Below, in pieces: positions 575 to 29,690 of a DNA stretch of 44,228 bases (its first letter is position 1; each line of letters begins with the position of its first letter). A program made the position numbers and the translations under genes. Under the pieces are notes generated by a model, which worked only from the letters and a program-made list of their open reading frames with translations, was not told the DNA's origin and did not search any database. Origin of the DNA: Escherichia phage BUCT825; sequence record PV040721.1; one strand, 5' to 3'.

Positions 575-862
575 CTAACTATAATAGTTCGCTATTAGGT
601 CGTCAACCTGTTTAAACGACCCGACGACAAAAACATTCGCACCGCGTTTACGCATACGCGCGTGCTCACGTAACTGATGAGGGTCCGGCTTCGTGTTTTC
701 GTCTTTCTTCACCTCGACAAACCAGACTATGCCGTCTGGGAGAATTACCAGCAGGTCGGGGGCGCCCACTCTATTTTCGTATGACAATTTGCGTACGAGG
801 CCACCGAGGGCCTCGAATCGCTCTTTTGCGTATTTCTGTATTTTGCCCTCAGGCGTACTCAT
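575..862 (-). CDS. VRR-NUC domain nuclease (95 aa)
   Basis: Small protein with GAPDLLV...VEVK motif typical of VRR-NUC/PD-(D/E)XK fold. Confidence 0.65.
   Translation of the reverse strand: MSTPEGKIQKYAKERFEALGGLVRKLSYENRVGAPDLLVILPDGIVWFVEVKKDENTKPDPHQLREHARMRKRGANVFVVGSFKQVDDLIANYYS
578..606 (-). promoter_or_regulatory. sigma70-like promoter, minus strand (-35 TTGACG 601-606, 17-bp spacer, -10 TATAGT 578-583), inside the 3' end of the VRR-NUC gene
   Basis: Reverse complement reads TTGACG-N17-TATAGT; near-identical to elements at 3987-4015 and 7083-7111. Confidence 0.6.
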
Positions 863-947
863 CTACGCACCCTTCTCGTTTCGTATGCTCAACCCCACAG
901 CGAGGACAGATTCGGCAGTCTTCTTCGTAGAACCAGTAAATTTTCAT
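849..947 (-). CDS. putative 32-aa Cys-rich (zinc-ribbon-like) peptide
   Basis: Manual translation MKIYWFYEEDCRICPRCGVEHTKREGCVDEYA; start overlaps stop of upstream micro-ORF (ATGA), 3' end overlaps VRR-NUC start. Confidence 0.25.
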   Translation of the reverse strand: MKIYWFYEEDCRICPRCGVEHTKREGCVDEYA

Positions 948-1075
948 TCCAGCACCCACAGATAAATTGCGATGAACATGATCAATATGGCAACCATCAT
1001 GCCGTATTGACCCTCGTGACAGTAGACACCGGCGGCAAATCCAGCCAGTACCGCGATAATCAGTTTACTTGGCAT
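944..1075 (-). CDS. putative 43-aa hydrophobic membrane peptide
   Basis: Manual translation MPSKLIIAVLAGFAAGVYCHEGQYGMMVAILIMFIAIYLWVLE; start overlaps the polymerase stop. Confidence 0.25.
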   Translation of the reverse strand: MPSKLIIAVLAGFAAGVYCHEGQYGMMVAILIMFIAIYLWVLE

Positions 1076-3245: not shown

Positions 3246-3265
3246 TATTTTCGACCCTTAGTAAA

Positions 3266-3285
3266 AAGGCCCAATGAAGGGCCTT
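3266..3285 (-). terminator. Intrinsic terminator-like hairpin on minus strand between SSB-like gene and polymerase gene
   Basis: Minus strand reads AAGGCCC-TTCATT-GGGCCTT followed by TTTTACT. Confidence 0.45.
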
Positions 3286-3304
3286 AGTTAAATTGATTCA
3301 GATA

Positions 3305-3931
3305 TTAGCGGCGGCGACGTTCGCGGCGCGGTGCTTCATCTTCTTCGTCGTCTTCCAGGTCATTGACGCTCGCAGCGACTTTAGAACCGCCGAACGCTTT
3401 GCCTTCGCCAACGTATTTAATCGCCAGCAGGTTAACGCCGAGGACTTTGTATTTCTGGCTGAACCAGATTTCAACGCTTACGTTAGCTAAGCATCCGCTG
3501 TAAACCTGTTCACCTTCAATCTGTTCACCGTCTACATTGAAGTCCTGTTCTACCTGAGTCTCACCTTTTTTAGAGGTTACAATCAGCGGCTGCTTCTGTG
3601 CCTTCGCTTTGAAGTAGAAGCCTTCCGGGAAGTCTTCAAACGGATTGTCACGCTCGGCAATGTCTTTAATCGCACATTTATCCATGTGCTTACCTTCGCC
3701 GTAGTTGGACTTCATCCACTTCTCGGCGGCGGCTGCACCTAACGCTTCTTCAACTACAGCGTAAACGGTGTCGTAGAGCGCGTCGATTTGCGCGTGGTCG
3801 GACGGCAGGATAATAGTCGCGCTGTACTGACCTTTAGTGATTGAACCATCATCATTTTCACGGTCTTTTTCGCGTTCGAATACGTTAACCCAAGCAGTGT
3901 TTACTTTACGCAGATTTAATTTCAGTCCCAT
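3305..3931 (-). CDS. putative ssDNA-binding protein (DUF2815-like), 208 aa with acidic/arginine-rich tail
   Basis: Position between nuclease and polymerase, own promoter and terminator, acidic C-terminus DDEEDEAPRRERRRR; family assignment from memory. Confidence 0.45.
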   Translation of the reverse strand: MGLKLNLRKVNTAWVNVFEREKDRENDDGSITKGQYSATIILPSDHAQIDALYDTVYAVVEEALGAAAAEKWMKSNYGEGKHMDKCAIKDIAERDNPFEDFPEGFYFKAKAQKQPLIVTSKKGETQVEQDFNVDGEQIEGEQVYSGCLANVSVEIWFSQKYKVLGVNLLAIKYVGEGKAFGGSKVAASVNDLEDDEEDEAPRRERRRR

Positions 3932-3986
3932 TTCTCGATTCCTCAGTTTTCAGTTTACTCCGGGAGCTGCCCGGCCAGTGATTAGA

Positions 3987-4015
3987 ACTATAATAGCTAA
4001 CTATTCAGGTGTCAA
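3987..4015 (-). promoter_or_regulatory. sigma70-like promoter, minus strand (-35 TTGACA 4010-4015, -10 TATAGT 3987-3992)
   Basis: Reverse complement TTGACA-N17-TATAGT; conserved with 578-606 and 7083-7111. Confidence 0.65.
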
Positions 4016-4019
4016 CACT

Positions 4020-5261
4020 TTATTCTAAATCTTCTTCACTAACCTTATTCCACTCAGGACGTTTGTCGTCCGCTGTTGTGACGCATGGCGCCCCCGGCTT
4101 ACGTGTGATGAAGTCTTTCAGTTCTTCTTCTGGTATTACTTTAACCGCTTCGGTCGGCGTCAGGAGCACTTCTTTAGTCAGCTTGTCGCCGTAGAGTTCT
4201 GCTACTTTCTCTGCGTCTTTCCACGCACGATTACCTGGGCGACCTTCCACCAGCTTGTACCCTGGCACTTTCTTACCGGAATGCAACGCAGCAGCCATAG
4301 CTTTTTCGACCTTATCGATGTGCTGGCGCAACAACGGCAACTTCTCATATTCAGCTACGAGTTGCTCCGGCGTAAGTTCCAGCGCAAAGTCGTCCTCCAG
4401 TTCTTCGGCAAGTACAGAATTAACCGTCTTTGTACGCGCTGCGCACTGTTCAGAGAACCGACACCACTGACAACCGTCGACAGACGGCTTAAAGTCCGAC
4501 GCTTTCAGGTTCTTCTTGCCTCGGAAATACGCATCAAGGGCTAACAGTGCGCGTTTCTGTGCGAACTTAGCGAACAGTTCCAGACCTTCAACCGAGATGT
4601 CCCACTCCGACGCGCCCCCGGCGTACGGCTGGAAGATGACTAGGCGCACTACTGATATGTTATAACGTCTCTTGAGTCGGCGGTAAACACCGAGAGCGTA
4701 GAGCATAAGCTGCTTGTTTTCTTTCGCTTCGACATGATGCCGTCCTGTTTTCAGGTCGCCGATAATGAGCATATGCTCGTCAGTGTTCGCCAGTTCCTGA
4801 ACGGCAACAAGGTCAGCGGTTCCGAACGTCTCAACGCCTTCGTAACCCGGATGCAATACCTCAGTAAGATTTACCCGCATTTCCAGCTTGGCGTAAGTCG
4901 CTACGTCGATAATCGCTTTGCAGTAGTCGGTGTACTTGCGCACCTGCTCAATCATGTCAGCCGTAATCAGTACCGCGCCTTTCATCTGGCTAATTAGCGC
5001 CTTAATCTGGCCTTTACCCTCGTCCAGCACGTAAGCGCCGACTTCACGCTCCAACGGCAACGCAGTGCCGCGTATATAGGCGTTGAGATGGACCTCAGCT
5101 ATGGTGTGCATGGCGGTTCCTGATACAGCGGCTTTACCCGACGTGTTAGGGATATCTTTTTCACACGCCAGCGACGCAGCGCATGACAGCCACTTTTTAG
5201 CGCCTGACGGTGACAGTAAGGCGTGTACATCATTATTGCCGCCTCGTTCTTTTAGTTTCAT
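4020..5261 (-). CDS. PD-(D/E)XK / Cas4-like nuclease (DUF2800-like) with C-terminal Cys cluster; start may be 5282
   Basis: ORF 4020-5282; internal ATG at 5261 has a better SD (GGGAG); C-terminal CQWCRFSEQC motif; N-terminal LSPSGAKKWLSCAAS. Confidence 0.6.
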   Translation of the reverse strand: MKLKERGGNNDVHALLSPSGAKKWLSCAASLACEKDIPNTSGKAAVSGTAMHTIAEVHLNAYIRGTALPLEREVGAYVLDEGKGQIKALISQMKGAVLITADMIEQVRKYTDYCKAIIDVATYAKLEMRVNLTEVLHPGYEGVETFGTADLVAVQELANTDEHMLIIGDLKTGRHHVEAKENKQLMLYALGVYRRLKRRYNISVVRLVIFQPYAGGASEWDISVEGLELFAKFAQKRALLALDAYFRGKKNLKASDFKPSVDGCQWCRFSEQCAARTKTVNSVLAEELEDDFALELTPEQLVAEYEKLPLLRQHIDKVEKAMAAALHSGKKVPGYKLVEGRPGNRAWKDAEKVAELYGDKLTKEVLLTPTEAVKVIPEEELKDFITRKPGAPCVTTADDKRPEWNKVSEEDLE

Positions 5262-5412
5262 GCTCTTAAACTCCCACCCCATTTAACTTTACGCGTTTTG
5301 CGCTTGTAGGCGCACGTGTCACCGCTACGGTTGAATATAATCAGCCAAGTCGAGTTGCTTACTCGAAAAGGCTGGTGACATTTAATAAAGAGAAGTCGCG
5401 CTTTACGGTTCG

Positions 5413-5562
5413 TCATTCTGCAATCTCCACAATACGCGCATTAGTGAAACTGCGTGCGAAGCCGAATGTGTAGAAGATGTACTGGGCTTCGTCCAAACGT
5501 GCGTAGCGGCTGTGTTCCTGGTCTTTACCGTCTATTTCTACAATTATCGCGTACCTTGTCAT
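5413..5562 (-). CDS. putative 49-aa protein
   Basis: Manual translation MTRYAIIVEIDGKDQEHSRYARLDEAQYIFYTFGFARSFTNARIVEIAE; ATGA overlap with upstream ORF stop. Confidence 0.3.
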   Translation of the reverse strand: MTRYAIIVEIDGKDQEHSRYARLDEAQYIFYTFGFARSFTNARIVEIAE

Positions 5563-5831
5563 ACCCTGCTCTCCCACTGGTCGATTAAATGTCGCGTCTT
5601 ATGTTCGCAGTGCATAGCCCACCCATACATCGACTCAAAGACATAAAAGTCTGGCTTGGCGAATGTCGTGCGCTTAATCTGTGACACGTGACGGCCTATA
5701 TCTTTAGGCCGCGGTACTTTGCCTAAGTAAGCCATCTCTTCCATCTGGTGCGCTCCGGACGGCGCACGCAACAGCCATAGTGCCTCTGTGTTGTCCCGCC
5801 TGTCGACGGCGCGGTAGAGTTGGTAAATCAT
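5559..5831 (-). CDS. hypothetical protein (90 aa)
   Basis: ORF in tightly packed minus-strand operon. Confidence 0.5.
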   Translation of the reverse strand: MIYQLYRAVDRRDNTEALWLLRAPSGAHQMEEMAYLGKVPRPKDIGRHVSQIKRTTFAKPDFYVFESMYGWAMHCEHKTRHLIDQWESRV

Positions 5832-6031
5832 TTCCTTACCCTCGCAGAATTAATCCACGTGAAAACATCGTCAATAGAAAAATCGCCGTCGAAAACCTTC
5901 TCAACTTTGCTGGCCTTCTTGACCGTCGTAGGGTGTTTGTTGTCTACCGCCTGAAATACGTAAACCAAATCATTTTCAGCGACAACGCTACCAGAAATCA
6001 TAAGACCACTTTTCTTAGCTAAAATAGCCAT
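5828..6031 (-). CDS. hypothetical protein (67 aa)
   Basis: ORF with overlapping start/stop; conserved SD context CTGAGGGTCG upstream. Confidence 0.5.
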   Translation of the reverse strand: MAILAKKSGLMISGSVVAENDLVYVFQAVDNKHPTTVKKASKVEKVFDGDFSIDDVFTWINSARVRK

Positions 6032-6042
6032 AATTCCGACCC

Positions 6043-6258
6043 TCAGTAGTACGGCGCAAATTCACCTTTAACGGCGGGACGAATTGTATGTACCGCCGTT
6101 TTATCGGTTGGGTACATGTCCGCCCAATATTCGCCAGCGGCATAGTCAAGAGTCCCGCGCCACGCACCATTCAAAACAAAGAATTGCTGACAACCCACAT
6201 ATGAGTCACTTATTTCTACAACTATTTGTTCGTTTATTACTTTGTATACGTTACTCAT
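6043..6258 (-). CDS. hypothetical protein (71 aa)
   Basis: ORF; conserved SD context CTGAGGGTCG upstream. Confidence 0.5.
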   Translation of the reverse strand: MSNVYKVINEQIVVEISDSYVGCQQFFVLNGAWRGTLDYAAGEYWADMYPTDKTAVHTIRPAVKGEFAPYY

Positions 6259-6278
6259 TATTACGACCCTCAGTTAAA

Positions 6279-6294
6279 GCGGCCCGAAGGCCGC
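6279..6294 (-). terminator. GC-rich hairpin (GCGGCC-CGAA-GGCCGC), possible weak terminator on minus strand
   Basis: 6-bp GC stem, 4-nt loop, followed on minus strand by TTTAACT. Confidence 0.3.
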
Positions 6295-6301
6295 CAGATA
6301 A

Positions 6302-6802
6302 TTATTCTTCTTCGAAATACTTGTTCTTGATTGCTGTCAAGCGTTCCAGGTATTCAGCCAGGTCTTCGTCTTTAATCGCTGCAATCTTCATTTTCTTACC
6401 AGTGAACTCTTCCAGCAGTTCATCAGAATCGTCGCACGCGGCATCGCTAGGACCTTCATTAATTGCATCGTCGATGGCCTGAATCTGGTCACGCAGAGAC
6501 TTGTAATCGACTTCTTCTTTCTCTTCTTCCGGTTCTGGCGCAGGTTCCTCTACTTTAGCTTTACGCGGCTTGCGTTTTGGCTTCTCTTCCTCCGCCGGTT
6601 TAGTGTCAACTACGTCTTCACCTTCAACCGGGATTTCTTTTGTTGCTTCTTCAGCGCACTCAGCTACCGCTTCTTTGGTGTACGATACCGTCTCTACTTC
6701 CAGCGGCGTGGCAACCTGAACAACTTGTTTCGCACTGTTCGCGGCAATCAGTTCATGTGCAACTACGAAACGTTCCAGCAATACTAAGAATTTCTCTAAC
6801 AT
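6302..6802 (-). CDS. highly acidic hypothetical protein (166 aa)
   Basis: Long E/D-rich stretches (EEEKPKRKPRKAKVEEPAPEPEEEKEE, DDSDELLEEF). Confidence 0.55.
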   Translation of the reverse strand: MLEKFLVLLERFVVAHELIAANSAKQVVQVATPLEVETVSYTKEAVAECAEEATKEIPVEGEDVVDTKPAEEEKPKRKPRKAKVEEPAPEPEEEKEEVDYKSLRDQIQAIDDAINEGPSDAACDDSDELLEEFTGKKMKIAAIKDEDLAEYLERLTAIKNKYFEEE

Positions 6803-6826
6803 TTGTTTCTCTCCTGTTTGTGTAAG

Positions 6827-7054
6827 TTACTCACCGTCGCCTTCAGTAAGGCTATCGTCTATTAGTTCAAATTTACCGTTTGAGTGTTGAATAGCTTCTT
6901 GCCCGCAATGGTCACAGACAACAAGTTTATCGAACCCATCAAACTCATCCCCTACTACGCAAGAAAGTACAAATTTATGTTTTGTGCACACTTCTTGCGG
7001 AGCGCCGAAAATTGCTCGAAAACCTTTAGCTATGGCCCCAGTGATTGTGTTCAT
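6827..7054 (-). CDS. small Cys-rich (zinc-finger-like) protein (75 aa)
   Basis: Cys pairs CTKHKFVLSC and CDHCGQ; SD GAGAGGGG upstream. Confidence 0.5.
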   Translation of the reverse strand: MNTITGAIAKGFRAIFGAPQEVCTKHKFVLSCVVGDEFDGFDKLVVCDHCGQEAIQHSNGKFELIDDSLTEGDGE

Positions 7055-7082
7055 ATCTGCCCCTCTCGTTTGGTATGGGCTA

Positions 7083-7111
7083 ACTATAATAGCGAACTAT
7101 TCACATGTCAA
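7083..7111 (-). promoter_or_regulatory. sigma70-like promoter, minus strand (-35 TTGACA 7106-7111, -10 TATAGT 7083-7088), divergent from the Cro-like gene
   Basis: Reverse complement TTGACATGTGAATAGTTCGCTATTATAGT. Confidence 0.65.
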
Positions 7112-7175
7112 TGGGCTTTTCTAAAATAATTAATATGGTACTATTCACATATCAACTGACTAAGGAGTAACTGAC

Positions 7176-7391
7176 ATGCAACCATCTGAACTAGGCATCC
7201 GTGTAGAGCAACGCCGTAAAGAACTCGGTATCTCCCAGCGCCGTCTGGCTGTTCTGGCCGGCGTTTCCCAGGGCGCGATTAACCAGCTTGCACTCGGGGT
7301 AACTCAGGACGTACGCCCGGCAACGCTGTTTAAACTGGCGGAAGTGCTGGAAGTAGACGCCAAGTGGCTGGCGCTAGGTGAAGGGGCGTAA
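7176..7391 (+). CDS. XRE/Cro-like helix-turn-helix transcriptional regulator (71 aa)
   Basis: HTH signature ISQRRLAVLAGVSQGAINQL; SD TAAGGAG upstream; only plus-strand gene in a minus-strand module. Confidence 0.75.
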   Translation: MQPSELGIRVEQRRKELGISQRRLAVLAGVSQGAINQLALGVTQDVRPATLFKLAEVLEVDAKWLALGEGA

Positions 7392-7406
7392 CGCCCCTTT
7401 CTTTTT
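7382..7406 (+). terminator. Intrinsic terminator whose loop is the Cro-like stop codon
   Basis: AGGGGCG-TAA-CGCCCCT followed by TTCTTTTT. Confidence 0.6.
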
Positions 7407-7408
7407 AC

Positions 7409-9667
7409 CTATTCCAAATCCTCCTCTGTCACCACCAGCATCTCATTTGGTTCGTATAGTGTCTTCGGCCTTAATCTATCACCTATTCTTTCGGGTATCC
7501 GGTATGTGCCGGGGACAACTTCACCGTTAACATCACATCCGAGCATCAACTCCCCGTCTTTCAGCATCTTCTCGAGATGATGGTTGGTGATGGCGTGGTC
7601 CCCCGAGTTCGCCACTATCTGCCGTTGGGTAAAACCTCGTCCGGTGTCGTCGGACTGTTGCAGGTCTTCCAGCGCGGCGAGTATTGATTCCTTACGCCCT
7701 TCATCCTTCCCGCGTTTTACAGCATTATTTACGTTTTCTTTACCTTCTTTAGTTAACCCTTCTTCCCGCTCCTTCTCCTCGTCAGTTTTGAACGGCTCGA
7801 AGCCCCACGGCATCAGCACAAGCGCCTTGTGCGGCTCAGGCAGATCGAGGTTTACGATTGTGCCGTATTCCTCTGTGCTACCGAGGAACTCAACTGCACG
7901 GTATTCTTTCGGAGGCGGGGCTTCACGGAACTGTACCGACTCCAGAACCATGCCAACCGTTTTCTGTTGAGGCCCATGCTTAAATTTCGAGTGGTATACG
8001 TTTATCTGGCGGTCGGTAGCGCGCTCAATTGTCAGCTCCACATCAACACCGGCATACAGCGCCCCGCTACCACGGGCTTTCTTTCCACCCTTAGGCGTAT
8101 GGTGGACGACACCCACAGCGGCTTTAGTTGCGTCGCGTACTTTTTTAAGGATGGCGATAACTTTACCCATGCCAATTGCAGTTGATGAACTGTTCTCGTC
8201 GAACTTGTCAATTGTCAGGGCCAGCGTCTGGTTGAGGGTATCGAACGCGACCATACCAATAGGCTCGTCCCCTGCAGCTTCACGCATCCTGCGGATTAGC
8301 GCGGGGATTTTTTTATCACCATGCGCAGCGAGCACCTCACCCATATCAATGACATGTACGTAATCTTTACCTTCCTCGCCGTATTTAGCCGCGAGCGCGT
8401 CAATACGTGTGCGTGTAGCTGCGCCTCCCTCACCGTCGATATAGAAATGGTGGCAACGCTGGGTATCCGCCCCGGCAAACCGGTATCCGGCGGCGCTCAG
8501 GTACATCATCCCCAGCGTATAGAACGATTTGTACGTGCCGGATTCCCCAACAATATCCCAGATACAATCTGACGGCATGTACCCCTCAACGACGAAATCA
8601 GCCTTTACCGGTTCCGGTAGCTCGTCCTCTTCTGAGTCATCATCGTCTTCCAGGTCGTCGAGGCTGCATGAAACAGATTCACGCGCACCCCATCCGATAG
8701 CCTCGGCGACTTCACTGAACGGCAGCCCGGTCGCATCACACGCGTATTTCCACACCTCTTTCGGCGACATGCCTTCGGTTGCCGTGATGTCGGTGTCGTG
8801 AATCATCGTTACGTTCGGCGCTTCATATCCCTCGCGCGGGAAGCACAGCAGGAAGTCGTCCGGGCGCGGGGTCGGGTCGCTGTAGTTTTCTGCGTGTTCT
8901 GGCGTAGCTGGCATCTTAAGGCCACGCGGCGTCATGATGCCGCCGTACTCGAATGCCAGTGCTTCAAACGCATCTGTAAACGCGGTGCGCAGTTCTTCCG
9001 GTATCTGGTAATCAGATGCGCTGCTGATGTCAACGGCTGGGACGCCTTCCAGTAACTCATCAGGGTCAATCAGGTCGTTGCGGCGCGACCAGATAACAGT
9101 AGAGCCAACTGGCGGCAGGTACATCGGCTGCGACAGAGTGAACCCGCTGCGGTCCGCGCCCATGCCTTTGAAGAAGTGCTCCAGTAATCCATGGCGAACA
9201 CGGATGATGCCGCCACCTTCAACCGGGCGGGCCAGCGGCATGACGACGCGAAAGCGCGGCGACTCGTCGGTATGTGATGCCGTGGTGTAGAGACACATCG
9301 CCTGGCGGCTGCGCTTAACCAGGCGCACCGCTTCCCGATACTCTTCCGGTGTTGCGCTATCGAAGTCAAGATACGCCAGCGACGATTTGCTTACAGACGC
9401 ATCACAGCGATAGAAGAAGCCTTTACGCGCTTGCTTAAAGTCACCGGTTTCCGGGTCTTTTACGGTGCTGTGTGTGGAGTCGCACGCGGCGGTGATATAA
9501 CCGGGTGCGGTCTTCGGGTTAATTCCGTCACGGACAGCATCAAGCGGCTGGATTAAATCTTTCAGGTCGCCCAGCGTTGCCGTGTGTGTGGTTCTGACGT
9601 TTATATCCTTTTTCTCGGCCCGCGCGTTGCGACGAGACCACGAGTAGGATAAAATTACATCGGACAT
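7409..9667 (-). CDS. Primase-helicase (N-terminal primase/polymerase-like region plus RecA-like P-loop ATPase), 752 aa
   Basis: Walker A GESGTYKS, HHTPKGG motif typical of RepA/AAA_25-type helicases; large N-terminal domain; C-terminal winged-helix-like tail. Confidence 0.75.
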   Translation of the reverse strand: MSDVILSYSWSRRNARAEKKDINVRTTHTATLGDLKDLIQPLDAVRDGINPKTAPGYITAACDSTHSTVKDPETGDFKQARKGFFYRCDASVSKSSLAYLDFDSATPEEYREAVRLVKRSRQAMCLYTTASHTDESPRFRVVMPLARPVEGGGIIRVRHGLLEHFFKGMGADRSGFTLSQPMYLPPVGSTVIWSRRNDLIDPDELLEGVPAVDISSASDYQIPEELRTAFTDAFEALAFEYGGIMTPRGLKMPATPEHAENYSDPTPRPDDFLLCFPREGYEAPNVTMIHDTDITATEGMSPKEVWKYACDATGLPFSEVAEAIGWGARESVSCSLDDLEDDDDSEEDELPEPVKADFVVEGYMPSDCIWDIVGESGTYKSFYTLGMMYLSAAGYRFAGADTQRCHHFYIDGEGGAATRTRIDALAAKYGEEGKDYVHVIDMGEVLAAHGDKKIPALIRRMREAAGDEPIGMVAFDTLNQTLALTIDKFDENSSSTAIGMGKVIAILKKVRDATKAAVGVVHHTPKGGKKARGSGALYAGVDVELTIERATDRQINVYHSKFKHGPQQKTVGMVLESVQFREAPPPKEYRAVEFLGSTEEYGTIVNLDLPEPHKALVLMPWGFEPFKTDEEKEREEGLTKEGKENVNNAVKRGKDEGRKESILAALEDLQQSDDTGRGFTQRQIVANSGDHAITNHHLEKMLKDGELMLGCDVNGEVVPGTYRIPERIGDRLRPKTLYEPNEMLVVTEEDLE

Positions 9668-14153: not shown

Positions 14154-14462
14154 TTGGATAAATTTACTGAAACAGTGACGGGGTGGCTTCTCGCTGCCGC
14201 ACTGGTCGGTGGATTGGTCGGACTAAGACAACATAAAAAGTCTATATCCGGGCCGATTGACGGACTGGTATTTCTCCTCACCGGCTTCGCGTGTGCCATT
14301 TTCGGTGCACCTCTTGCTGCTCAATGGTTCGGTATTACCGGTGAGCGCGAGATAGCTGGCCTCGGATTCATCATTGCCATTCTCTGGATGCCTATCTATT
14401 CCCGCCTTTCTGGCATCGTATCGGGCGGCGATATTGCCCACCCAGGAGGACCGCATGACTGA
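14154..14462 (+). CDS. holin (102 aa, about 3 predicted TM segments), TTG start
   Basis: Hydrophobic segments LLAAALVGGLVGL, LVFLLTGFACAIFGAPLAA, LGFIIAILWMPIY; no in-frame ATG before the first TM; strong SD. Confidence 0.6.
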   Translation: MDKFTETVTGWLLAAALVGGLVGLRQHKKSISGPIDGLVFLLTGFACAIFGAPLAAQWFGITGEREIAGLGFIIAILWMPIYSRLSGIVSGGDIAHPGGPHD

Positions 14463-14727
14463 GCTATTCTGGTTTGTCGTAATGCTGGCAATGGGCGCTT
14501 CGTCCCTGTTCAACGTGTATAATGAACGCGTGGACGACGGGATATTCGGTCGGGTGCTCTATATCCTGTCCGCTATTGTCTGCGCCGCCGGATGTATTCA
14601 CCTGTTACAGGGCGGCATGTCACCTACGCTGCCCGAGACATTAATCACATTAGTTGCGCTGCGCCAGATTCGTCAGGCGTGGCTGTCGTACGGAGGGCAT
14701 AAGCGTGTCTCGAAACATTTCAGATAA
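14456..14727 (+). CDS. second small membrane protein (about 90 aa, 2 TM): holin/antiholin-like
   Basis: ATG at 14456 with SD AGGAGG, overlapping holin stop; TM segments FWFVVMLAMGASSLF and LYILSAIVCAAGCIHLL. Confidence 0.5.
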
Positions 14728-15238
14728 TGGACTTACCGCAGATAAGCTGCGCGAGGTTTTACACTACGACCCCGATACCGGAGTTTTTACATGGAAAGCT
14801 ACACGTGTGCACAATGCTCGGGCGGGAAGTGAGGCTGGCGCCAACCATTGTGCAGGCTATCGCTCCATAGCCTTCGGTGGGAAGCGGTACTTGGCGCATC
14901 GTCTCGCTTGGCTATACATGACAGGGGAATGGCCCAACTCCCTAATAGACCACATAAACGGCGATGGTCGTGATAATAGATTCTGTAATTTACGTGAAGC
15001 CAACAAATCCGAAAACGGATGCAACAAAGGGCCAAGAAAGGACAGCAAATCCGGTATTAAGAACGTTATGTGGCAGAAGCAACAAGGAGGATGGTACGTT
15101 CAATTAAAAATACATAAGATTAAGTATTTTTACGGATACTTTGCGGACCTAGAACTAGCCGCGCTAGTTGCCGAAGAAGCTAGAGAGAAGATACACGGGG
15201 TTTTCGCGAACCATAAATTACGGGAAGGTGCTTTATGA
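14654..15238 (+). CDS. HNH homing endonuclease with AP2-like domain (likely start GTG 14705)
   Basis: HRLAWLYMTGEWPNSLIDHINGDGRDNRFCNLREANKSEN (HNH); conserved N-terminal LTADKLREVLHYDPDTGVFTW; stop overlaps endolysin ATG (ATGA). Confidence 0.8.
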   Translation: MRCARFVRRGCRTEGISVSRNISDNGLTADKLREVLHYDPDTGVFTWKATRVHNARAGSEAGANHCAGYRSIAFGGKRYLAHRLAWLYMTGEWPNSLIDHINGDGRDNRFCNLREANKSENGCNKGPRKDSKSGIKNVMWQKQQGGWYVQLKIHKIKYFYGYFADLELAALVAEEAREKIHGVFANHKLREGAL

Positions 15239-15717
15239 GAAACATTAGCAACAATGGCATCAAATTCACCGCAGCGTTTGAGGGGTTCCGCGGAACTGCG
15301 TATCGTGCTACGCCAAATGAGAAGTACCTGACTATTGGGTACGGTCATTATGGGCCAGACGTAACGCCAGGCAAGACCATCACCCCGGGACAAGGCCTCC
15401 TGTTACTGAATCGTGATATGGCTAAGGCCGTAGCTGCGGTTGACGCAGCAGCGCACCATTCACTGACGCAGGCGCAGTTTGATGCTGTTTGCGACCTGGT
15501 CTATAACGCGGGCGCTGGCGTGATTGCTGCTACTACGGGCACGGGTAAGGCGCTGCGTTCTGGTGATATCACGACGCTGCGGGCTAAGCTGGCGCTGTTC
15601 ATCAACCAGAATGGTAAACCGTTACTTGGTCTGCGTCGCCGTACTGCGGGTCGTCTGGCGTTGTTCGACGGTAAACAGTGGCAGGAGGCGGAGGCTATCG
15701 GGAGGGCTGTTAAATGA
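15235..15717 (+). CDS. endolysin, GH24 (T4/lambda-type lysozyme), 160 aa
   Basis: FEGFRGTAYRATPNEKYLTIGYGH catalytic region resembling T4 lysozyme E...D...TIGIGH. Confidence 0.85.
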   Translation: MRNISNNGIKFTAAFEGFRGTAYRATPNEKYLTIGYGHYGPDVTPGKTITPGQGLLLLNRDMAKAVAAVDAAAHHSLTQAQFDAVCDLVYNAGAGVIAATTGTGKALRSGDITTLRAKLALFINQNGKPLLGLRRRTAGRLALFDGKQWQEAEAIGRAVK

Positions 15718-15874: not shown

Positions 15875-15947
15875 ACCAATTGACACCTAAGACTAATCAG
15901 ACGATACTTAAATCACCTCCTGTTCCATCCCTCTGCTCTCCAGTTTT

Positions 15948-15979
15948 ATCCCGGCCCTGACCCAGCCGGGATTTTTTTT
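15948..15979 (+). terminator. Second intrinsic terminator (ATCCCGGC-CCTGACCCA-GCCGGGAT followed by TTTTTTT)
   Basis: 8-bp stem followed by T8 run. Confidence 0.75.
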
Positions 15980-16001
15980 ATCTGTTTTCTGTAATGACTA
16001 G

Positions 16002-21339: not shown

Positions 21340-21360
21340 AGCCCCGAAAGGGGCTTTCTT
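21340..21360 (+). terminator. Intrinsic terminator (AGCCCC-GAAA-GGGGCT followed by TTCTT)
   Basis: GNRA-type loop hairpin after portal gene. Confidence 0.65.
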
Positions 21361-21365
21361 ACAGT

Positions 21366-22442
21366 ATGCTATTAACTTTAGCGCCACAGGGTTTATCTAT
21401 GAGCTTACTTACATCTCTAATTAGCCACCAGATATGGCTGCAACGTACTGCATCCGGTGAGGTGAAAGACCTAGCACCGTTCATTCAGGAGATGCGGGAC
21501 GAAATCAAACGGCAGGTGCTGTTATTCGGCGATGATGGCCGCAGCACCGCCCGGCTGAATAAACTGTTACGCGACCTTGAAGAAGCACTGGCTGGACTTA
21601 CAGTTGACTGGCAAACAAAGCTGACAGAAGACCTTAAGGAACTGGCGGCATATGAGGCTGAGTGGAACGTAAAGACACTTACCACCAACGTTAACGCGGA
21701 ATTTGTTACACCTACCGCCGAGCAGGTGTGGGCCGCTGCCGAGTTTCAACCTCTGTCGCTAAGTGACAAGCCCGTTGACTTCACCAAGCTGATGTCAGGC
21801 TGGGGTGAAGCGGAGGTCGCGCGCCTTGTAACTGGCGTTAAGATGGGCTTTGTGCAAGGCCAAACCACACGGCAGATTGTTAAAGAAGTAGTTGGTAAAG
21901 GCGGCCTGGCTGACGTATCAGAGAAACACGCTGCTACAGTAATCCGCACCGCGCTGTCCCACGTGTCCAACGAAGCCCGTAATGAGACGTACCGCCAGAA
22001 CGACGACATTATCGAGAAATATGAGTGGGTGTCTACTCTTGATTCTAGGACCTCAGCCGTTTGCAAGGCCAGAGATGGGATGACGTGGGAAATCGGTAAA
22101 GGGCCGATGCCCCCCGCCCATCCGAACTGCCGGTCGTGCACGGCTCCGGTAATCAGTTCGGAGTTCGACTTCCTGGATAAAGGCGCAAAACGCGCGGCTA
22201 AGGGTGCGGACGGAGGTACTCAGGTAAGCGCAGACACCACTTACTACGAGTTCCTGAAACAACAACCGGCATGGTTTCAGGACCAGGCTCTAGGCCCGGT
22301 GCGGGGTAAGATTTTCCGTAACAGCGGTATATCGCCGGAAGAGTTTCGCGTAATATCTGTAGATGGTTTCGGGAATCCGCTCACGCTTAAGCAGATGGCG
22401 GAACTCGATAAACGTGTTGCTGATTATCTGAAAGGGGAATAA
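21366..22442 (+). CDS. head morphogenesis protein (SPP1 gp7 / Mu F-like)
   Basis: C-terminal LDSRTSAVCKARDGMTWEIGKGPMPPAHPNCRSC signature. Confidence 0.65.
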   Translation: MLLTLAPQGLSMSLLTSLISHQIWLQRTASGEVKDLAPFIQEMRDEIKRQVLLFGDDGRSTARLNKLLRDLEEALAGLTVDWQTKLTEDLKELAAYEAEWNVKTLTTNVNAEFVTPTAEQVWAAAEFQPLSLSDKPVDFTKLMSGWGEAEVARLVTGVKMGFVQGQTTRQIVKEVVGKGGLADVSEKHAATVIRTALSHVSNEARNETYRQNDDIIEKYEWVSTLDSRTSAVCKARDGMTWEIGKGPMPPAHPNCRSCTAPVISSEFDFLDKGAKRAAKGADGGTQVSADTTYYEFLKQQPAWFQDQALGPVRGKIFRNSGISPEEFRVISVDGFGNPLTLKQMAELDKRVADYLKGE

Positions 22443-22903
22443 TGATGGGCTTTTTCAAAGTAACTGATGTACCGTCGCGTCGCGTAGTCCAGTACGCCCG
22501 TGTGCCTGGCTCCGGCGAGAACGTGGTATTTATTGAAGATGAAAGTGTACTGGGTGCGCCCGTAGACGATATGCCGTTTGCAGATAAAACCGGTATTGCG
22601 CTACCGGCGGCGGGCATGCTTTATGAGATTCAGTACCTGGCGGATGCTGGTGATGTGTATTTCTCCGTACAACCGCAGGACGCTGAACTGGCAGACGGCA
22701 GCGCAAATATCGCTGTCGAAGTTAAGGCGGGCAAAGCACCATATGCGCTGACCTGGTACAAAGACGGGAAGGAAGTGGTTAACGCCCCGGAAGAGGCTTT
22801 GTCTCTGACGGTTAATTCTGTTGGGGAATACTTCGTTAAAGTTACTGATGCCGATGGTGTAGAGGCCGTCAGTAAAGCGGCGAAGGTCACTAAGCCAGAA
22901 TAA
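22442..22903 (+). CDS. Ig-like domain protein (153 aa), possible capsid decoration/accessory protein
   Basis: C-terminal Ig-like pattern PYALTWYKDGKEV...VGEYFVKVTDADG. Confidence 0.55.
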   Translation: MMGFFKVTDVPSRRVVQYARVPGSGENVVFIEDESVLGAPVDDMPFADKTGIALPAAGMLYEIQYLADAGDVYFSVQPQDAELADGSANIAVEVKAGKAPYALTWYKDGKEVVNAPEEALSLTVNSVGEYFVKVTDADGVEAVSKAAKVTKPE

Positions 22904-22908
22904 ACTGA

Positions 22909-22929
22909 AGCCCCGAAAGGGGCTTTTTA
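22909..22929 (+). terminator. Intrinsic terminator (AGCCCC-GAAA-GGGGCT followed by TTTTAG)
   Basis: Same hairpin as at 21340. Confidence 0.65.
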
Positions 22930-22978
22930 GTGCCTGTGATTATTCCAGTTATTCCACTCAATTGTAAATGTTGGAATA

Positions 22979-22994
22979 AACTATTCGAATAGTT
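22979..22994. promoter_or_regulatory. Perfect 16-bp palindrome AACTATTCGAATAGTT (candidate operator) overlapping a -35 hexamer
   Basis: Self-complementary sequence read directly; half-site ACTATTC recurs in several promoters. Confidence 0.5.
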
Positions 22995-23021
22995 GACTTT
23001 TCACTTAAAATGTGCTAAGCT
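22993..23021 (+). promoter_or_regulatory. candidate promoter (-35 TTGACT, 17-bp spacer, -10 TAAGCT)
   Basis: Hexamers and spacing read directly; weak -10. Confidence 0.35.
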
Positions 23022-23201
23022 CCACCTGAGCTTGTGAAGTATGAACAAGCGACCGCGGCGCGGGCAGGTAACGGAGCGGGGCGTTAGCCCTGAGTGTAGT
23101 TACGCTGACGCGTTCGGAAGGGCCATACTCTATTGCTTGTGTAAAAAGTAACTGGTTTACTGAGATTACGCCGTTTCTATGTTTAAATGATAAGGACTAG
23201 C

Positions 23202-23226
23202 GCCCCGCTTTATGGCGGGGCTTTAC
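23202..23226 (+). terminator. Intrinsic terminator/attenuator (GCCCCGC-TTTATG-GCGGGGC followed by TTTACTTAT) immediately upstream of the Rz RBS
   Basis: 7-bp GC stem plus U-rich tail. Confidence 0.55.
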
Positions 23227-23245
23227 TTATCGAGAAAGGAGAAAC

Positions 23246-23632
23246 ATGAATATTAAAGCAACTGTCGTAGCAGGAGCATGTTACATCATCCTGTTATACA
23301 CGCACGGCTACTATCAATACCGCAGCGGCTGGAACGGAGGCAGGGCTAATCTAGTTTCGCAGCAACAGCAGAAAGCACAGGCTGAGTTAGCGAAGAAAAC
23401 ACAACGGCAGCAGCAGGACGAATCAAAGGCCGCCGCCGCTGACAACGAAGGCAAGACGAAATCAGAGGTGATTACCCGTGAAGTCGTTAAGTACATTAAA
23501 ACGCCTGGCCGCAGCGTGTGCACTTTCGACGATGCTCGCGTCCTGCTCAAGTCCCGCGCCGTCGCAAACGCCAATTCCATCCCCGGATACGACGATGATG
23601 CAGCCGCCATGCAAACTGGCCGCGCCAAGTAG
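23246..23632 (+). CDS. Rz: i-spanin (Rz-like), 128 aa
   Basis: N-terminal TM anchor VVAGACYIILLY, Gln-rich coiled-coil region, overlapping out-of-frame lipoprotein gene. Confidence 0.7.
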   Translation: MNIKATVVAGACYIILLYTHGYYQYRSGWNGGRANLVSQQQQKAQAELAKKTQRQQQDESKAAAADNEGKTKSEVITREVVKYIKTPGRSVCTFDDARVLLKSRAVANANSIPGYDDDAAAMQTGRAK

Positions 23633-23741
23633 CGATGCCGATGAGGATTTAGCCATTGACGTTCAGAACACAGAATGTGTACGGCAACTGCGTCTGAAAG
23701 TGTTCATGTTGCAGGATTACGTGAGGAATATTCTGGAATAG
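23478..23741 (+). CDS. Rz1: o-spanin (Rz1-like lipoprotein), 87 aa, GTG start, overlapping Rz in another frame
   Basis: Signal peptide with lipobox LASC, Pro-rich mature part SSPAPSQTPIPSPD; SD AGAGGTG before GTG. Confidence 0.65.
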   Translation: MKSLSTLKRLAAACALSTMLASCSSPAPSQTPIPSPDTTMMQPPCKLAAPSSDADEDLAIDVQNTECVRQLRLKVFMLQDYVRNILE

Positions 23742-23823
23742 TTGCCTTGCATGTTGGAATAATTTATTCTTGACATGTAAATCCGGGTGGCCCGGGTTCC
23801 AACGTCCAGGGGACATACTGACT

Positions 23824-24525
23824 ATGAATCGTTTTTTACGTTATCCGTTCCAGGAAGAAGCTGGGGCAGAAGATAAAGCTGGTGGCGGTGACGCGCCAAA
23901 AATGTTCACCGCTGAAGAAGTTCAGGCGCTGATTGAGAAAGAAGTAGCCGGGCTTAAGGCCAATCAGGAAGTGTTGCTGGCGGAGAAGAAAGAAGCCGCT
24001 CGTAAAGCAAAAGAGGCCGAAGAAGAACGGCAGCGTGCCCACCAGGAGGCGTTAAAAGCCGCTGGTAAGATGGACGAGTTCGAAAAGACGATTCGTAGCC
24101 AGTATGACCCGGTGTTAGCTGAGAAAGATGGTCGCATCTCCAAAATGGCAGAGCGCATCCTCGGCAGCGAACGTAAAGCGGTGTTAGGCTCTTTCGCGGG
24201 CGACTTTATCACCCCTGAAGCAGTAGACATTCTTGCACCGTTCGTTAAGACTGAGTTCGAAGGCGATGATGTGGTTACTAAGTTTGTCGGCGCAGATGGC
24301 AATGTAATCACAACTGACCCGGAACAGTTCCGTAAATATTTGCGTGAACACAAAGCGTTTTCGCATTTGATTAAAGCAAATGCAGCTTCCGGCGGCGGGG
24401 CTTCCGGTGGCAAAGGCGGCGGGGCCGCACCAGCGTTTAAAGACATGAGTGAAGCAGAGCGTTTAGCCCTGTATAAATCGAACCCTGCCGAATTTGAACG
24501 GCAACTTAAAGCCCTGAGGAAATAA
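23824..24525 (+). CDS. scaffolding protein (about 233 aa)
   Basis: Charged coiled-coil protein immediately upstream of major capsid gene; Gly-rich ASGGGASGGKGGGAA segment. Confidence 0.6.
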   Translation: MNRFLRYPFQEEAGAEDKAGGGDAPKMFTAEEVQALIEKEVAGLKANQEVLLAEKKEAARKAKEAEEERQRAHQEALKAAGKMDEFEKTIRSQYDPVLAEKDGRISKMAERILGSERKAVLGSFAGDFITPEAVDILAPFVKTEFEGDDVVTKFVGADGNVITTDPEQFRKYLREHKAFSHLIKANAASGGGASGGKGGGAAPAFKDMSEAERLALYKSNPAEFERQLKALRK

Positions 24526-24527
24526 TA

Positions 24528-25577
24528 ATGGCAATTACTACTATCGGCGATATCGTAACTGGCAACATCCCGGTCCTGGCGTCTTATATGACCGAGGACC
24601 CGGTAGAAAAAACCGCGTTCTTCCAGTCTGGTATTCTGACCCCGACCCCATACGCTGCCGAGATTGCCCGCGGCCCGTCCAACATCGCTAATATTCCTTT
24701 CTGGAAAGCGATTGATACCTCTATCGAGCCAAACTACTCGAACGACGTATACCAGGATATCGCTACCCCGCGTAACGTGCGGACCGGTGAGATGATGGCA
24801 CGCGTTGCATACCTGAACGAAGGTTTCGGCCAGGCGGACCTGACTGTCGAACTGACCAGCCAGAACCCGCTGCAATCAGTAGCTTCTCGCCTGGATAACT
24901 TCTGGCAGCGCCAGGCACAACGCCGTCTGATTGCCACCGCGCTCGGTCTGTACAATGACAACGTGGCCGCTACCGACGCATACCACGAGCAGAACGACAT
25001 GGTGATCGACGTGTCCGCTACTAAAGGCTTCGACGCGGGCGCGTTCATCGACGCTACCCAGACTATGGGTGATGCGCTGATGGGCAACGGCGGTGAAGTG
25101 CTGGGCGCTATCGCAATGCACAGCTTCGTTTATGCGCAGGCCCGTAAGCAGCAGCTTATTGACTTCATCAAAAACGCTGACAACGATACCCTGTTCGCCA
25201 CCTACCAGGGCTACCGCGTGATTGTTGATGACAGCATGACGGTAGTTGGTACAGGCCCGAGCCGTAAGTTCATCTCCATCATCTTCGGCAACGGCGCTAT
25301 CGGTTACGGCGAAGGTAACCCGAAAAATCCGCTGGCATATGAGCGCGAAGAGTCCCGCGGCAATGGTGGCGGTGTCGAAACCTTGTGGACCCGTAAGACC
25401 TGGTTACTGCACCCACTGGGCTACAGCTTCACCAGCGCGGTAATCACCGGTAACGGCACCGAGACTATCGCACGTTCTGCTTCCTGGCAGGACCTGGCGA
25501 ACGCCTCCAACTGGAACCGTGTGGTTGAACGTAAGCACGTACCGATTGCCTTCCTGGTGACTGGTGCAGGTGCTTAA
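24528..25577 (+). CDS. major capsid protein (349 aa)
   Basis: Position after scaffold, strong terminator downstream, size typical of HK97-fold coat proteins. Confidence 0.75.
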   Translation: MAITTIGDIVTGNIPVLASYMTEDPVEKTAFFQSGILTPTPYAAEIARGPSNIANIPFWKAIDTSIEPNYSNDVYQDIATPRNVRTGEMMARVAYLNEGFGQADLTVELTSQNPLQSVASRLDNFWQRQAQRRLIATALGLYNDNVAATDAYHEQNDMVIDVSATKGFDAGAFIDATQTMGDALMGNGGEVLGAIAMHSFVYAQARKQQLIDFIKNADNDTLFATYQGYRVIVDDSMTVVGTGPSRKFISIIFGNGAIGYGEGNPKNPLAYEREESRGNGGGVETLWTRKTWLLHPLGYSFTSAVITGNGTETIARSASWQDLANASNWNRVVERKHVPIAFLVTGAGA

Positions 25578-29662: not shown

Positions 29663-29666
29663 AACT

Positions 29667-29690
29667 AAGGCCCCGAAAGGGGCCTTTTCC
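29667..29690. terminator. Bidirectional intrinsic terminator (AAGGCCCC-GAAA-GGGGCCTT) between convergent tail-tube and kinase genes
   Basis: 8-bp stem flanked by A-run upstream and T-run downstream; near-identical copy at 42199-42222. Confidence 0.7.

Follow-up and report, generated by a model that had tools for sequence, protein, structure and literature searches.

The window analysed here, the whole 44,228-nt stretch of Escherichia phage BUCT825 (PV040721.1), is of a Kagunavirus (Guernseyvirinae). It carries a two-component spanin pair at 23246-23741 on the + strand, between a Hoc-like (Ig-like) head decoration gene on the left (22442-22903, + strand; phrog_3945, E = 5.4e-84; same annotation in K1ind1) and the head scaffolding gene on the right (23824-24525, + strand; phrog_206, E = 2.5e-55). 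These are the flanks that had been proposed for the locus in an initial annotation. The scaffold gene probably starts at ATG 23824 rather than at TTG 23770, judging from the conservation of the ATG and of the untranslated region in front of it.

The i-spanin gene (23246-23632, + strand) matches phrog_2536 (E = 1.5e-54), an Rz-like family, and the most hydrophobic 17-residue window of its product in a hydropathy scan comprises residues 1-17, in agreement with the N-terminal membrane anchor previously assigned to it. The Rz1-like o-spanin gene (23478-23741, + strand; phrog_5672, E = 3.6e-30; phrog_1267, E = 8e-18) begins with a GTG within the i-spanin gene and is read in the +1 frame relative to it. 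Its product contains the lipobox LASC with Cys23 and a 65-aa mature part with eight prolines and three cysteines, so that the earlier description of an out-of-frame, proline-rich Rz1 with a LASC lipobox is correct.

Lambda Rz/Rz1 are two-component spanins, and the overlapped type of such pairs is represented by LysB/LysC of phage P2. Like Rz/Rz1, the BUCT825 pair combines an inner-membrane-anchored i-spanin with a small Pro-rich lipoprotein o-spanin, here in a +1-frame overlap, and its PHROG families are Rz-like. Unlike the embedded lambda-type pair, however, the BUCT825 o-spanin gene extends 109 nt beyond the i-spanin gene, and the pair is therefore overlapped rather than embedded. The BUCT825 spanins also differ from Rz/Rz1 in having their own predicted promoter and structured leader, and in lying among head genes, away from the holin (14154-14462) and endolysin (15235-15717) genes. 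From these coordinates the spanins begin 7.5 kb further on; the displacement noted earlier (about 8 kb) is real.

The gene order Hoc-like, Rz/Rz1, scaffold is the same in the K1G, K1ind1, Jersey and SETP3 loci, the DNA of the locus is 93-97% identical to Kagunavirus records, and the records of relatives already annotate Rz-like spanins at the equivalent locus. Since the spanin genes of BUCT825 are the same as those in annotated Guernseyvirinae loci, the gene part of the locus is already known. The cassette is present in about 483-620 phage records of Kaguna-, Jersey- and Cornellvirus, in Serratia phage Tsm2, and in every Guernseyvirinae locus that we examined; Dhillonvirus HK578 has Rz in the equivalent position, between head-morphogenesis and scaffold genes. 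The distantly related Shewanella phage 3/49 has a homologous module of head-morphogenesis, scaffold and capsid genes with no spanins there, so that the cassette was plausibly either gained long ago or lost in the 3/49 lineage.

What appears to be new lies in the 342-bp gap before the spanins, where our analysis predicts a conserved promoter and a covarying RNA of about 200 nt. In the records inspected this gap is either unannotated or assigned to a hypothetical protein, and the record of fBC-Eco01 marks a promoter and a terminator. At the left of the gap is a bidirectional terminator hairpin, AAGCCCCGAAAGGGGCTT followed by TTTTT, visible in the sequence at 22908-22929 and listed by our scan on the minus strand; it corresponds to the upstream terminator first placed at 22909-22929, and the hairpin is repeated in the window at 21340-21357 and 29664-29688. 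Directly after it, at 22930-22941, alignments of relatives reveal an insertion hot spot, the left edge of the conserved block of promoter and RNA. Alignments of many relatives to the gap begin at query base 38 (22941), and relatives carry a reverse-oriented RusA-like gene or a methyltransferase gene at 22930-22941. This spot, upstream of the promoter, is the truly variable one. The "tRNA-Ser" of some Jerseyvirus records is on the minus strand over the 3' end of the Hoc gene and the terminator, not in the predicted RNA.

The predicted promoter P1 (22993-23021, + strand) consists of a -35 box TTGACT, a 17-nt spacer and an extended -10 element TGcTAAGCT, and is proposed on the basis of sequence and conservation: T.GA.T and TG.TA..CT are unchanged among the K, J and C1 types while the spacer diverges. 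In phage fBC-Eco01 this site had been predicted independently as host promoter HP1 (PMC9825357 Table S2). Immediately upstream, at 22940-22992 on the + strand, is a cluster of GGAATA-type words that may be regulator sites; it includes two copies of TTATTCC, TGTAAAT, TGGAATAA and the palindromes GAATAAACTATTC and CTATTCGAATAG, all invariant across the K, J and C1 types. The minus strand of the cluster reads TTTACA-18-AATAAT. A second predicted promoter region, P2 (23726-23770, + strand), follows the o-spanin gene and comprises GGAATA, TGGAATAG, a -35 box TTGCCT (23742-47), a 17-nt spacer and a -10 box TATTCT (23765-70), of which Kaguna-, Jersey- and Cornellvirus all retain GGAATAGTTGCCTT and GGAATAATTTATTCTTG.

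Both regions fall below the threshold of a consensus promoter scan, and the -10 of P1 matches TATAAT at only three of six positions. They share the palindrome GAATA-N3-TATTC, whose only exact copies in the window are at 22974 and 23757, and a GAATAG word that immediately precedes the -35 box; five of the nine TGGAATA words in the window are at P1 and P2. These features suggest that P1 and P2 belong to one family of sub-consensus promoters that is conserved in several genera.

The repeats that were thought to bracket the spanin locus are parts of these two regions. ATGTTGGAATAA occurs at 22968-22979 and 23751-23762, the latter copy within the 17-nt spacer of P2, and GAATAGTTG(A/C)C at 22987-22997 and 23736-23746; one repeat starts within the o-spanin stop codon. 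Thus both pairs exist, in swapped order as described, with small corrections to the mapping: the first copy of the former begins one base to the right of the original 22967, and the second copy of the latter had been placed at 23745-23755. The exact 12-mer repeat is unremarkable by itself, as a query with the 342-nt gap yields three other 12-nt matches in the window and, by our own estimate, about 58 identical 12-mer pairs are expected in 44 kb. The repeats are meaningful because the two motifs co-occur at two intergenic sites, adjoin the -35 boxes and are conserved in Jersey-, Cornell- and Kagunavirus. They are therefore better described as putative -35-proximal and operator words shared by P1 and P2 than as insertion scars.

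A related motif, tgAATAGTa-ccTATTat-T, was found by PHIRE in Kagunavirus fBC-Eco01 and termed a "phage promoter" (PMC9825357). The full motif has seven copies in our window, at other promoters, and in at least two of them (3990 and 7086) it is situated within the spacer of a sigma-70 promoter, which fits an operator better than a promoter of a phage polymerase. Like that motif, P1 and P2 have its GAATAGT half-site directly upstream of the -35 box; unlike it, the palindrome GAATA-N3-TATTC and the TTATTCC direct repeats are confined to these two loci. PHROG scans of 30 ORFs outside the locus gave no candidate regulator for the GGAATA words, and neither transcript maps nor RNA studies of Kaguna- or Jerseyvirus turned up in literature searches.

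Downstream of P1, covariance models R1 and R2 predict a structured non-coding leader RNA of about 200 nt (23028-23232, + strand). It comprises a hairpin H1 (23030-23050), a long irregular hairpin H2 (23053-23117) whose apical loop is mostly of the GNRA type (GUAA), an invariant GGAAGGG (23116-23122) and an AU-rich 3' domain. In alignment A7, which was fitted to the model, 96.1% of the cells are paired, versus 26-41% for slid controls. Compensatory double changes are found in 14 of the 29 pairs, and these represent few independent events because there are only two main alleles and a few K-type variants. The K type alone, in a MAFFT alignment made independently of the structure, has 97.4% of the cells paired and four compensatory pairs, and a model built only from it finds the J type with E values of about 1e-5 to 1e-6. 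The leaders of the Cornellvirus C2 type are top matches at the syntenic place at a non-significant level (E about 1), and the leader model detects neither the C1 type nor Tsm2, HK578 or Shewanella phage 3/49.

No known RNA family was recognized at the locus. None of the 4227 covariance models of Rfam reached its gathering score anywhere in the window; over 22850-23900 all matches were at chance level (E > 1), the VIPECOMC04 locus likewise yielded nothing, and ARAGORN found no tRNA. Two additional pairings were considered and rejected: that of the H2 apical stem with the 5' arm of the 3' hairpin, considered as an antiterminator, is an 8-nt match present in the window only, with no covariation in relatives, and a closing helix formed by the 5' end of the RNA and the tail that follows the hairpin, with two compensatory positions, is too short at 4 bp.

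The top terminator-like site of our scan is the GC-rich 3' hairpin at 23202-23231 (+ strand), GCCCCGC-TTTATG-GCGGGGC, with an 8-bp stem of which seven pairs are GC, followed by the poor U tract TTTACTTATC. We regard it as a candidate leaky terminator or attenuator. Its stem shows compensatory changes from C-G to U-A and G-C in relatives. The sequence after it is TTAGCGTAT in the J type, with none in the C types and Tsm2. Since either the U tract or the whole hairpin is absent from the leaders of Serratia Tsm2 and Cornellvirus, a terminator role would not be universal. The spanin ATG is 25 nt past the hairpin, leaving no room for a promoter in between; therefore, spanin expression must pass the hairpin. 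A mini-ORF before the hairpin, AUG-UUU-AAA-UGA, was also set aside, both AUGs being lost in the J variants L009 and L058.

The leader exists as two alleles that have been exchanged between genera as a discrete block. Comparison of Jerseyvirus dunkel with the window illustrates this: the block from P1 through the RNA is 94-98% identical, versus 65% for Hoc and 81% for the i-spanin. Mismatch positions put the edges of the dunkel block at 22941 and about 23290, and the right edge implies that the spanin start region is included. Over 52 loci, the distances between P1, the RNA and the spanin ATG vary by no more than 3 nt, and insertions are confined to positions upstream of P1, inside the spanin genes or behind them. 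On the other side of the cassette, alignment shows an invariant 5' UTR of the scaffold gene (23783-23826, + strand), with hairpins CCGGG-TGG-CCCGG and GTCC-AGG-GGAC followed by ATAYTGACT and the ATG. It is identical across all six genera or types aligned, and an exact 25-mer of it is present in 53 IMG/VR contigs.

We consider it moderately probable that this arrangement constitutes an activator-dependent late unit, in which a structured leader and a leaky terminator meter spanin expression. Transcription coming from the terminase, portal and Hoc genes would meet the terminator at 22908-22929, and would be restarted at P1, a putative sub-consensus sigma-70 site that has a good -35 box and an extended -10, is preceded by GGAATA-type palindromes and is probably activator-dependent. 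The transcript would begin with the non-coding leader of about 200 nt and close it with the GC-rich hairpin, where many transcripts may stop to leave a stable small RNA. The remaining ones would read through and yield Rz/Rz1 mRNA in modest quantity, protected by its structured 5' end. P2, right after the o-spanin stop, would then boost transcription of the scaffold and capsid genes via the invariant 5' UTR. A further step, that the P1-driven RNA represents a new class of phage regulatory RNA, acting either in cis as an attenuator or antiterminator like lambda 6S/tR' or HK022 put (gating spanin and capsid expression and thereby lysis timing) or as a mobile trans-acting sRNA module of promoter, RNA and terminator that is exchanged across genera, is possible but tentative, and we would not count on it.

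The strongest competitor of the metering leader, itself rather doubtful, is that the RNA of about 200 nt is an independent trans-acting phage sRNA module exchanged between phages, the spanins being expressed only by read-through of its terminator. The discrete mosaic block, with two alleles distributed independently of the flanking genes, is consistent with such a module, as are its own predicted promoter, its terminator-like 3' end and an AU-rich 3' domain whose sequence is conserved between the alleles. Shewanella phage 3/49 has a promoter, a non-coding stretch of about 120 nt and a terminator before the scaffold gene, with no spanins, and this hints that the RNA may be its own unit rather than a spanin leader. 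However, an Hfq-type small RNA would call for a better U tract, and Tsm2 and Cornellvirus lack the hairpin or the U tract. Moreover, the RNA is never parted from the spanin start at any of the 52 loci, its complementarity to the rest of the window reaches at most 11-12 nt, which is about the chance level, and E. coli genomes contain nothing similar to it.

An antitermination unit, in which P1, the leader and the hairpin would modify the polymerase to pass both this terminator and later ones (25593 and 29664), seems unlikely to us. The comparison is suggested by lambda, where pR', the 194-nt 6S RNA and tR' precede S-R-Rz-Rz1, and by HK022, which has the cis-acting put RNA. BUCT825 has the same order of promoter, leader of about 200 nt, terminator, and lysis and head genes; its leader has two hairpins 2 nt apart just past the start, as in put, and its late block contains several hairpin terminators. 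The leader has no sequence similarity to HK022 putR, and model R2 does not match there either, its best hit being 8.8 bits inside cro. PHROG scans of the 30 ORFs outside the locus, in which the smallest ORFs were not exhaustively covered, detected no Q-like protein, and the terminator is weak in BUCT825 and weak or absent in some genera.

The initial annotation had taken the cassette for a moron-type insertion into the late operon, with the repeats as insertion marks, a reading that we now consider very improbable. Morons of lambdoid phages are promoter-gene-terminator units between late genes, and the layout here is indeed moron-like, with a terminator upstream, an own predicted promoter, a place between structural genes and the same words repeated on either side. 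The absence of spanins from this place in an outgroup whose flanking head genes are homologous also speaks for an insertion at some time. On the other hand, the synteny comparison shows that the cassette is not variable: it is in all relatives examined, some 500-620 records from at least four genera, and is fixed subfamily-wide. Its conserved and already annotated position in these records and in Dhillonvirus argues against a recent moron, and insertion as a recent event is largely refuted. No terminator follows the cassette either, since 23741-23824 contains no terminator-like site on the + strand and P2 occupies that stretch, and the genes encode a core lysis function rather than an accessory trait. 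The repeats behave as conserved promoter words that keep a constant distance to the -35 and -10 boxes, and their GAATAGT half-site is common to the operators of seven other promoters, so that they do not qualify as bracketing insertion elements. Moron-like variable insertions of Guernseyvirinae are situated elsewhere, just upstream of the spanin unit at the hot spot described above.

Least probable of all is a small protein encoded in the gap (36 aa in Kagunavirus fKuEco01, 63 aa in phage Jersey), for which an ORF at 23041-23151, CDS annotations in relatives' records and AFGRA-x-LYC in one frame of both alleles, over the invariant GGAAGGG region, could be cited, but whose reading frame is not conserved: in four K-type variants, including K1ind1, 1-nt indels shorten the ORF to 9-17 aa (it is frameshifted in L001, L010, L014 and L026, and L069 has no ATG), the J type lacks the stretch that contains its ATG, the Jersey ORF begins within the -10 box and has its N-terminal frame shifted by a 1-nt indel in three of seven J variants, changes among J-type variants are by our reading mostly non-synonymous, no PHROG match was obtained, and the paired double substitutions fit RNA stems.

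Guernseyvirinae are in widespread therapeutic and biocontrol use against E. coli and Salmonella. To our knowledge, the control of their late genes and lysis is uncharacterised, and we know of no antiterminator or late activator in them. The 342 bp that look "empty" or carry a hypothetical protein in hundreds of GenBank records hold a conserved predicted promoter and a covarying structured RNA before the spanins, and a related predicted promoter with an invariant 5' UTR also precedes the scaffold gene. The locus offers testable handles, namely two promoters with common binding-site words, RNA stems that can be mutated, and a two-allele block that recombines naturally. If the RNA is regulatory, it would be a new case of RNA-level control of phage lysis genes.

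Based on PHROG scans of the window ORFs, the replication genes occupy 575-9667 on the minus strand, and they are followed by the holin (14154-14462), endolysin (15235-15717), small terminase (from 18001), large terminase, portal, head-morphogenesis, Hoc-like (22442-22903), scaffold (23824-24525, plus strand) and major capsid (24528-25577) genes. As the initial annotation had proposed, a spanin pair lies between the Hoc-like and scaffold genes. The i-spanin gene (23246-23632, plus strand) matches phrog_2536 (E=1.5e-54) and encodes a hydrophobic N-terminus. The out-of-frame o-spanin gene (23478-23741, plus strand, +1 frame relative to i-spanin; phrog_5672 and phrog_1267) starts at a GTG preceded by GAGGTG, and encodes a lipobox, LASC, with Cys23 and a Pro-rich mature part of 65 aa with 8 Pro. 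Since it extends 109 nt beyond the end of i-spanin, the two genes form an overlapped pair. The proposed displacement of about 8 kb from holin and endolysin also holds, the spanins being located 7.5 kb downstream of the endolysin end at 15717.

In phage vB_VIPECOMC04 (locus L004), an HNH endonuclease gene (1729-2793) is placed between the two spanin genes, replacing the equivalent of window 23496-23543; the i-spanin there has a different C-terminus, the o-spanin has an ORF of its own, whose signal peptide and lipobox (MRLPILLLVIGCYGCSS...) are new, and no intron was matched in Rfam at this locus. The insertion is a natural conversion of overlapped into separated spanins. In the window, an HNH homing-endonuclease gene (14654-15238, plus strand; phrog_99, E=1e-69) is wedged between holin and endolysin and overlaps the endolysin start. 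The DNA polymerase ORF (1065-3245, minus strand) carries a mid-ORF endonuclease-like segment (phrog_93, residues 443-537), which may represent an intein or what is left of a homing endonuclease, and is followed by a separate endonuclease/resolvase-like ORF (575-862, minus strand). After the endolysin terminator there is a small non-coding unit (15880-15985, plus strand) with the promoter TTGACA-17-GATACT, conserved at 75-95% from the promoter onward in 444 phage records. Its transcript of ~65 nt opens with an unstructured, CU-rich segment, the first bases of which, CACCUCCU, are identical to the anti-Shine-Dalgarno end of 16S rRNA, and ends in a strong terminator (CCCGGC...GCCGGG plus T8).

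The 2.2 kb around the spanin locus is 93-97.5% identical to the Kagunavirus (Guernseyvirinae) Escherichia phages K1G, K1ind1 and XY1 and matches 483-498 phage records, the majority of them Salmonella Jerseyvirus, while complete E. coli genomes give no match. The initial annotation regarded the cassette as a moron-type insertion; as a recent event, this is contradicted by synteny, because the order Hoc-like, Rz/Rz1, scaffold recurs in Kagunavirus (as in the K1ind1 annotation), Jerseyvirus and Serratia phage Tsm2. In Cornellvirus the spanins are directly upstream of the scaffold gene, with a reverse-oriented gene as left neighbour, and in Dhillonvirus HK578 Rz lies between the head-morphogenesis and scaffold genes. 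A tblastn search with i-spanin returns 620 records, and split lysis genes have already been noted (PMC9825357, PMC7203180). The spanin cassette is therefore not a recent insertion, and its locus is an ordinary one, already known for these phages.

The sole relative found without spanins at this site is the distant Shewanella phage 3/49 (locus L074; scaffold protein 45% identical), in which the head-morphogenesis, scaffold and capsid genes form a homologous module, with neither a spanin nor a Hoc gene at this point. Its 324-bp gap (3077-3404) resembles the arrangement in the window: sigma-70-like promoters are present together with ~120 nt of non-coding sequence (fold z = -2.45) and a strong terminator (AAACCAGC-TTAATT-GCTGGTTTTTT), and a further promoter precedes the scaffold gene. 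Homology of the non-coding sequence to the Kagunavirus RNA is not detectable. The moron reading survives only as a likeness in architecture, and possibly as an ancient event. Genuine presence/absence variation is located just upstream of the predicted promoter P1, in a hot spot at 22930-22941 between the Hoc terminator and P1, and the gap similarity starts exactly at 22941 in many relatives. Reverse-oriented cargo at the hot spot includes a RusA-like resolvase gene in vB_VIPECOMC04 (L004 832-1353) and an adenine methyltransferase gene in Jerseyvirus dunkel (L071 817-1545); other records have 300-1100 bp extra.

The terminator noted upstream of the cassette is present by sequence inspection and terminator scan, as a hairpin AAGCCCCGAAAGGGGCTT followed by TTTTT at 22908-22929. 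With its GAAA loop, the hairpin occurs three times in the late gene block (21340-21357, 22909-22926 and 29664-29688), one copy separating the portal from the head-morphogenesis gene. Several Jerseyvirus GenBank records annotate a minus-strand "tRNA-Ser" over the Hoc-like 3' end and this terminator (L002 776-853), which is likely a false positive because ARAGORN finds no tRNA in the window.

Both words of the repeats said to bracket the cassette do occur twice, at positions slightly different from those first reported: ATGTTGGAATAA at 22968-22979 and 23751-23762, and GAATAGTTGMC at 22987-22997 and 23736-23746. The repeated 12-mer alone is unremarkable in 44 kb, the 342-nt gap query matching over 12 nt at three further places in the window. 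The repeats are parts of two related, predicted promoter regions on the plus strand: P1, upstream of the spanins (-35 TTGACT at 22993-22998, spacer 17 nt, extended -10 TGcTAAGCT at 23013-23021), and P2, before the scaffold gene (-35 TTGCCT at 23742-23747, directly after the o-spanin stop codon; spacer 17 nt; -10 TATTCT at 23765-23770). GAATAG precedes the -35 box in both, the palindrome GAATA-N3-TATTC has exact occurrences in the window only in these two regions, and five of the nine TGGAATA words in the window are found there. Across three diverged types, the words TTATTCC-N2-TTATTCC, GGAATA and TATTC in the P1 region are fixed, as are the -35 T.GA.T and extended -10 TG.TA..CT, and the spacer differs between the types; the P2 words are likewise conserved among relatives. 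The P1 site was predicted as host promoter HP1 in Kagunavirus fBC-Eco01 (PMC9825357 Table S2). In a consensus promoter scan both P1 and P2 scored below threshold, which fits activator dependence without proving it, and the words upstream of P1 form a leftward promoter-like sequence on the minus strand (TTTACA-18-AATAAT).

The fBC-Eco01 study also reports a repeated motif, tgAATAGTa-ccTATTat-T, and names it a phage-RNA-polymerase promoter (PMC9825357). Its palindromic form TGAATAGTANCCTATTAT has seven copies in the window against 0.11 expected (3990, 7086, 7130, 10585, 12276 (-), 15995, 32115 (+)), and at least those at 3990 and 7086 fill the space between the -35 and -10 boxes of a sigma-70-like early promoter, TTGACA-17-TATAGT. 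No RNA polymerase was matched among the window ORFs scanned, and the motif is better explained as an operator bound by a phage repressor or activator than by the published assignment. Because its half-site GAATAGT is common to P1 and P2, part of the repeat is, by the criterion that the initial annotation itself set, an ordinary promoter element here; the 12-mer palindrome is confined to the P1 and P2 regions.

Between P1 and the spanins lies a candidate leader RNA. In 180 records, 65 of them Salmonella phages, the stretch 22941-23245 is conserved at 94-98% identity, and a second allele, just 58% identical, is found in Jerseyviruses such as Jersey. A covariance model built from eight sequences of the first, Kagunavirus-like allele with an author-defined structure (hairpins H1, 23030-23050, and H2, 23053-23117) picks up the Jersey-like allele with E about 1e-5 to 1e-6. 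In the model alignment, which follows the model by construction and draws chiefly on two lineages, 96.1% of cells pair, versus 82% in shuffles and 26-41% with slid partners, and 14 of 29 pairs have changes on both sides. A plain MAFFT alignment of the Kagunavirus-like variants alone gives 97.4% paired with four compensatory pairs, and the 3' hairpin (23202-23221) covaries too. Rfam has no match to the leader. ORFs annotated in the gap in some records are not conserved and are truncated by 1-nt indels; the ATG of the Kagunavirus-like ORF is deleted in the Jersey-like allele, and the Jersey ORF starts inside the -10 box. One frame reads AFGRA-x-LYC in both alleles over an invariant GGAAGGG; one Kagunavirus-like variant (L069) keeps CGGAAGG and not the peptide.

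At 52 loci, the distance from P1 across the RNA to the spanin ATG varies by no more than 3 nt, and extra sequence is found only ahead of P1 or inside or behind the spanin genes. In dunkel, identity to the window is 94-98% from P1 to the RNA, versus 65% for Hoc and 81% for i-spanin, and mismatch positions delimit an exchanged block from 22941 to about 23290 that includes the spanin start region. Promoter, RNA and start region hence move together as one module.

Downstream of P2, the scaffold 5' UTR (23783-23826, plus strand) is invariant across Kagunavirus, Jerseyvirus, Cornellvirus and Serratia Tsm2, with an exact 25-mer in 53 IMG/VR contigs. It contains two hairpins (CCGGG-TGG-CCCGG and GTCC-AGG-GGAC) ahead of ATAYTGACTATG and may constitute a translational operator; since the sequence never varies, it provides no covariation evidence. 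In some records, e.g. K1ind1, the annotated scaffold start is the TTG corresponding to 23770, which falls within P2. A start at the conserved ATG, 23824, with the invariant UTR ahead of it, is more likely.

The 25 nt from the 3' hairpin to the spanin ATG contain no promoter, and an efficient-looking terminator precedes P1; transcription of the spanins would thus have to begin at P1 and run through the hairpin. The U tract of this hairpin is poor in the window (TTTACTTATC), worse in the Jersey-like allele and missing in Cornellvirus and Tsm2. On these grounds the preferred reading is a structured leader whose 3' hairpin acts as a leaky terminator or attenuator and would meter spanin expression. 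It is rather unlikely that the leader is a small RNA that acts independently in trans. An antitermination unit composed of P1, leader and hairpin, like lambda pR'-6S-tR' or HK022 put, seems considerably less probable still, as a search with the leader covariance model R2 gave no hit at HK022 putR and the PHROG-scanned ORFs include no Q-like gene. Under the favoured leaky terminator or attenuator, P2 would raise transcription for the scaffold and capsid genes. The main worthwhile result is a conserved pair of predicted promoters together with a covarying, previously unannotated candidate leader RNA.
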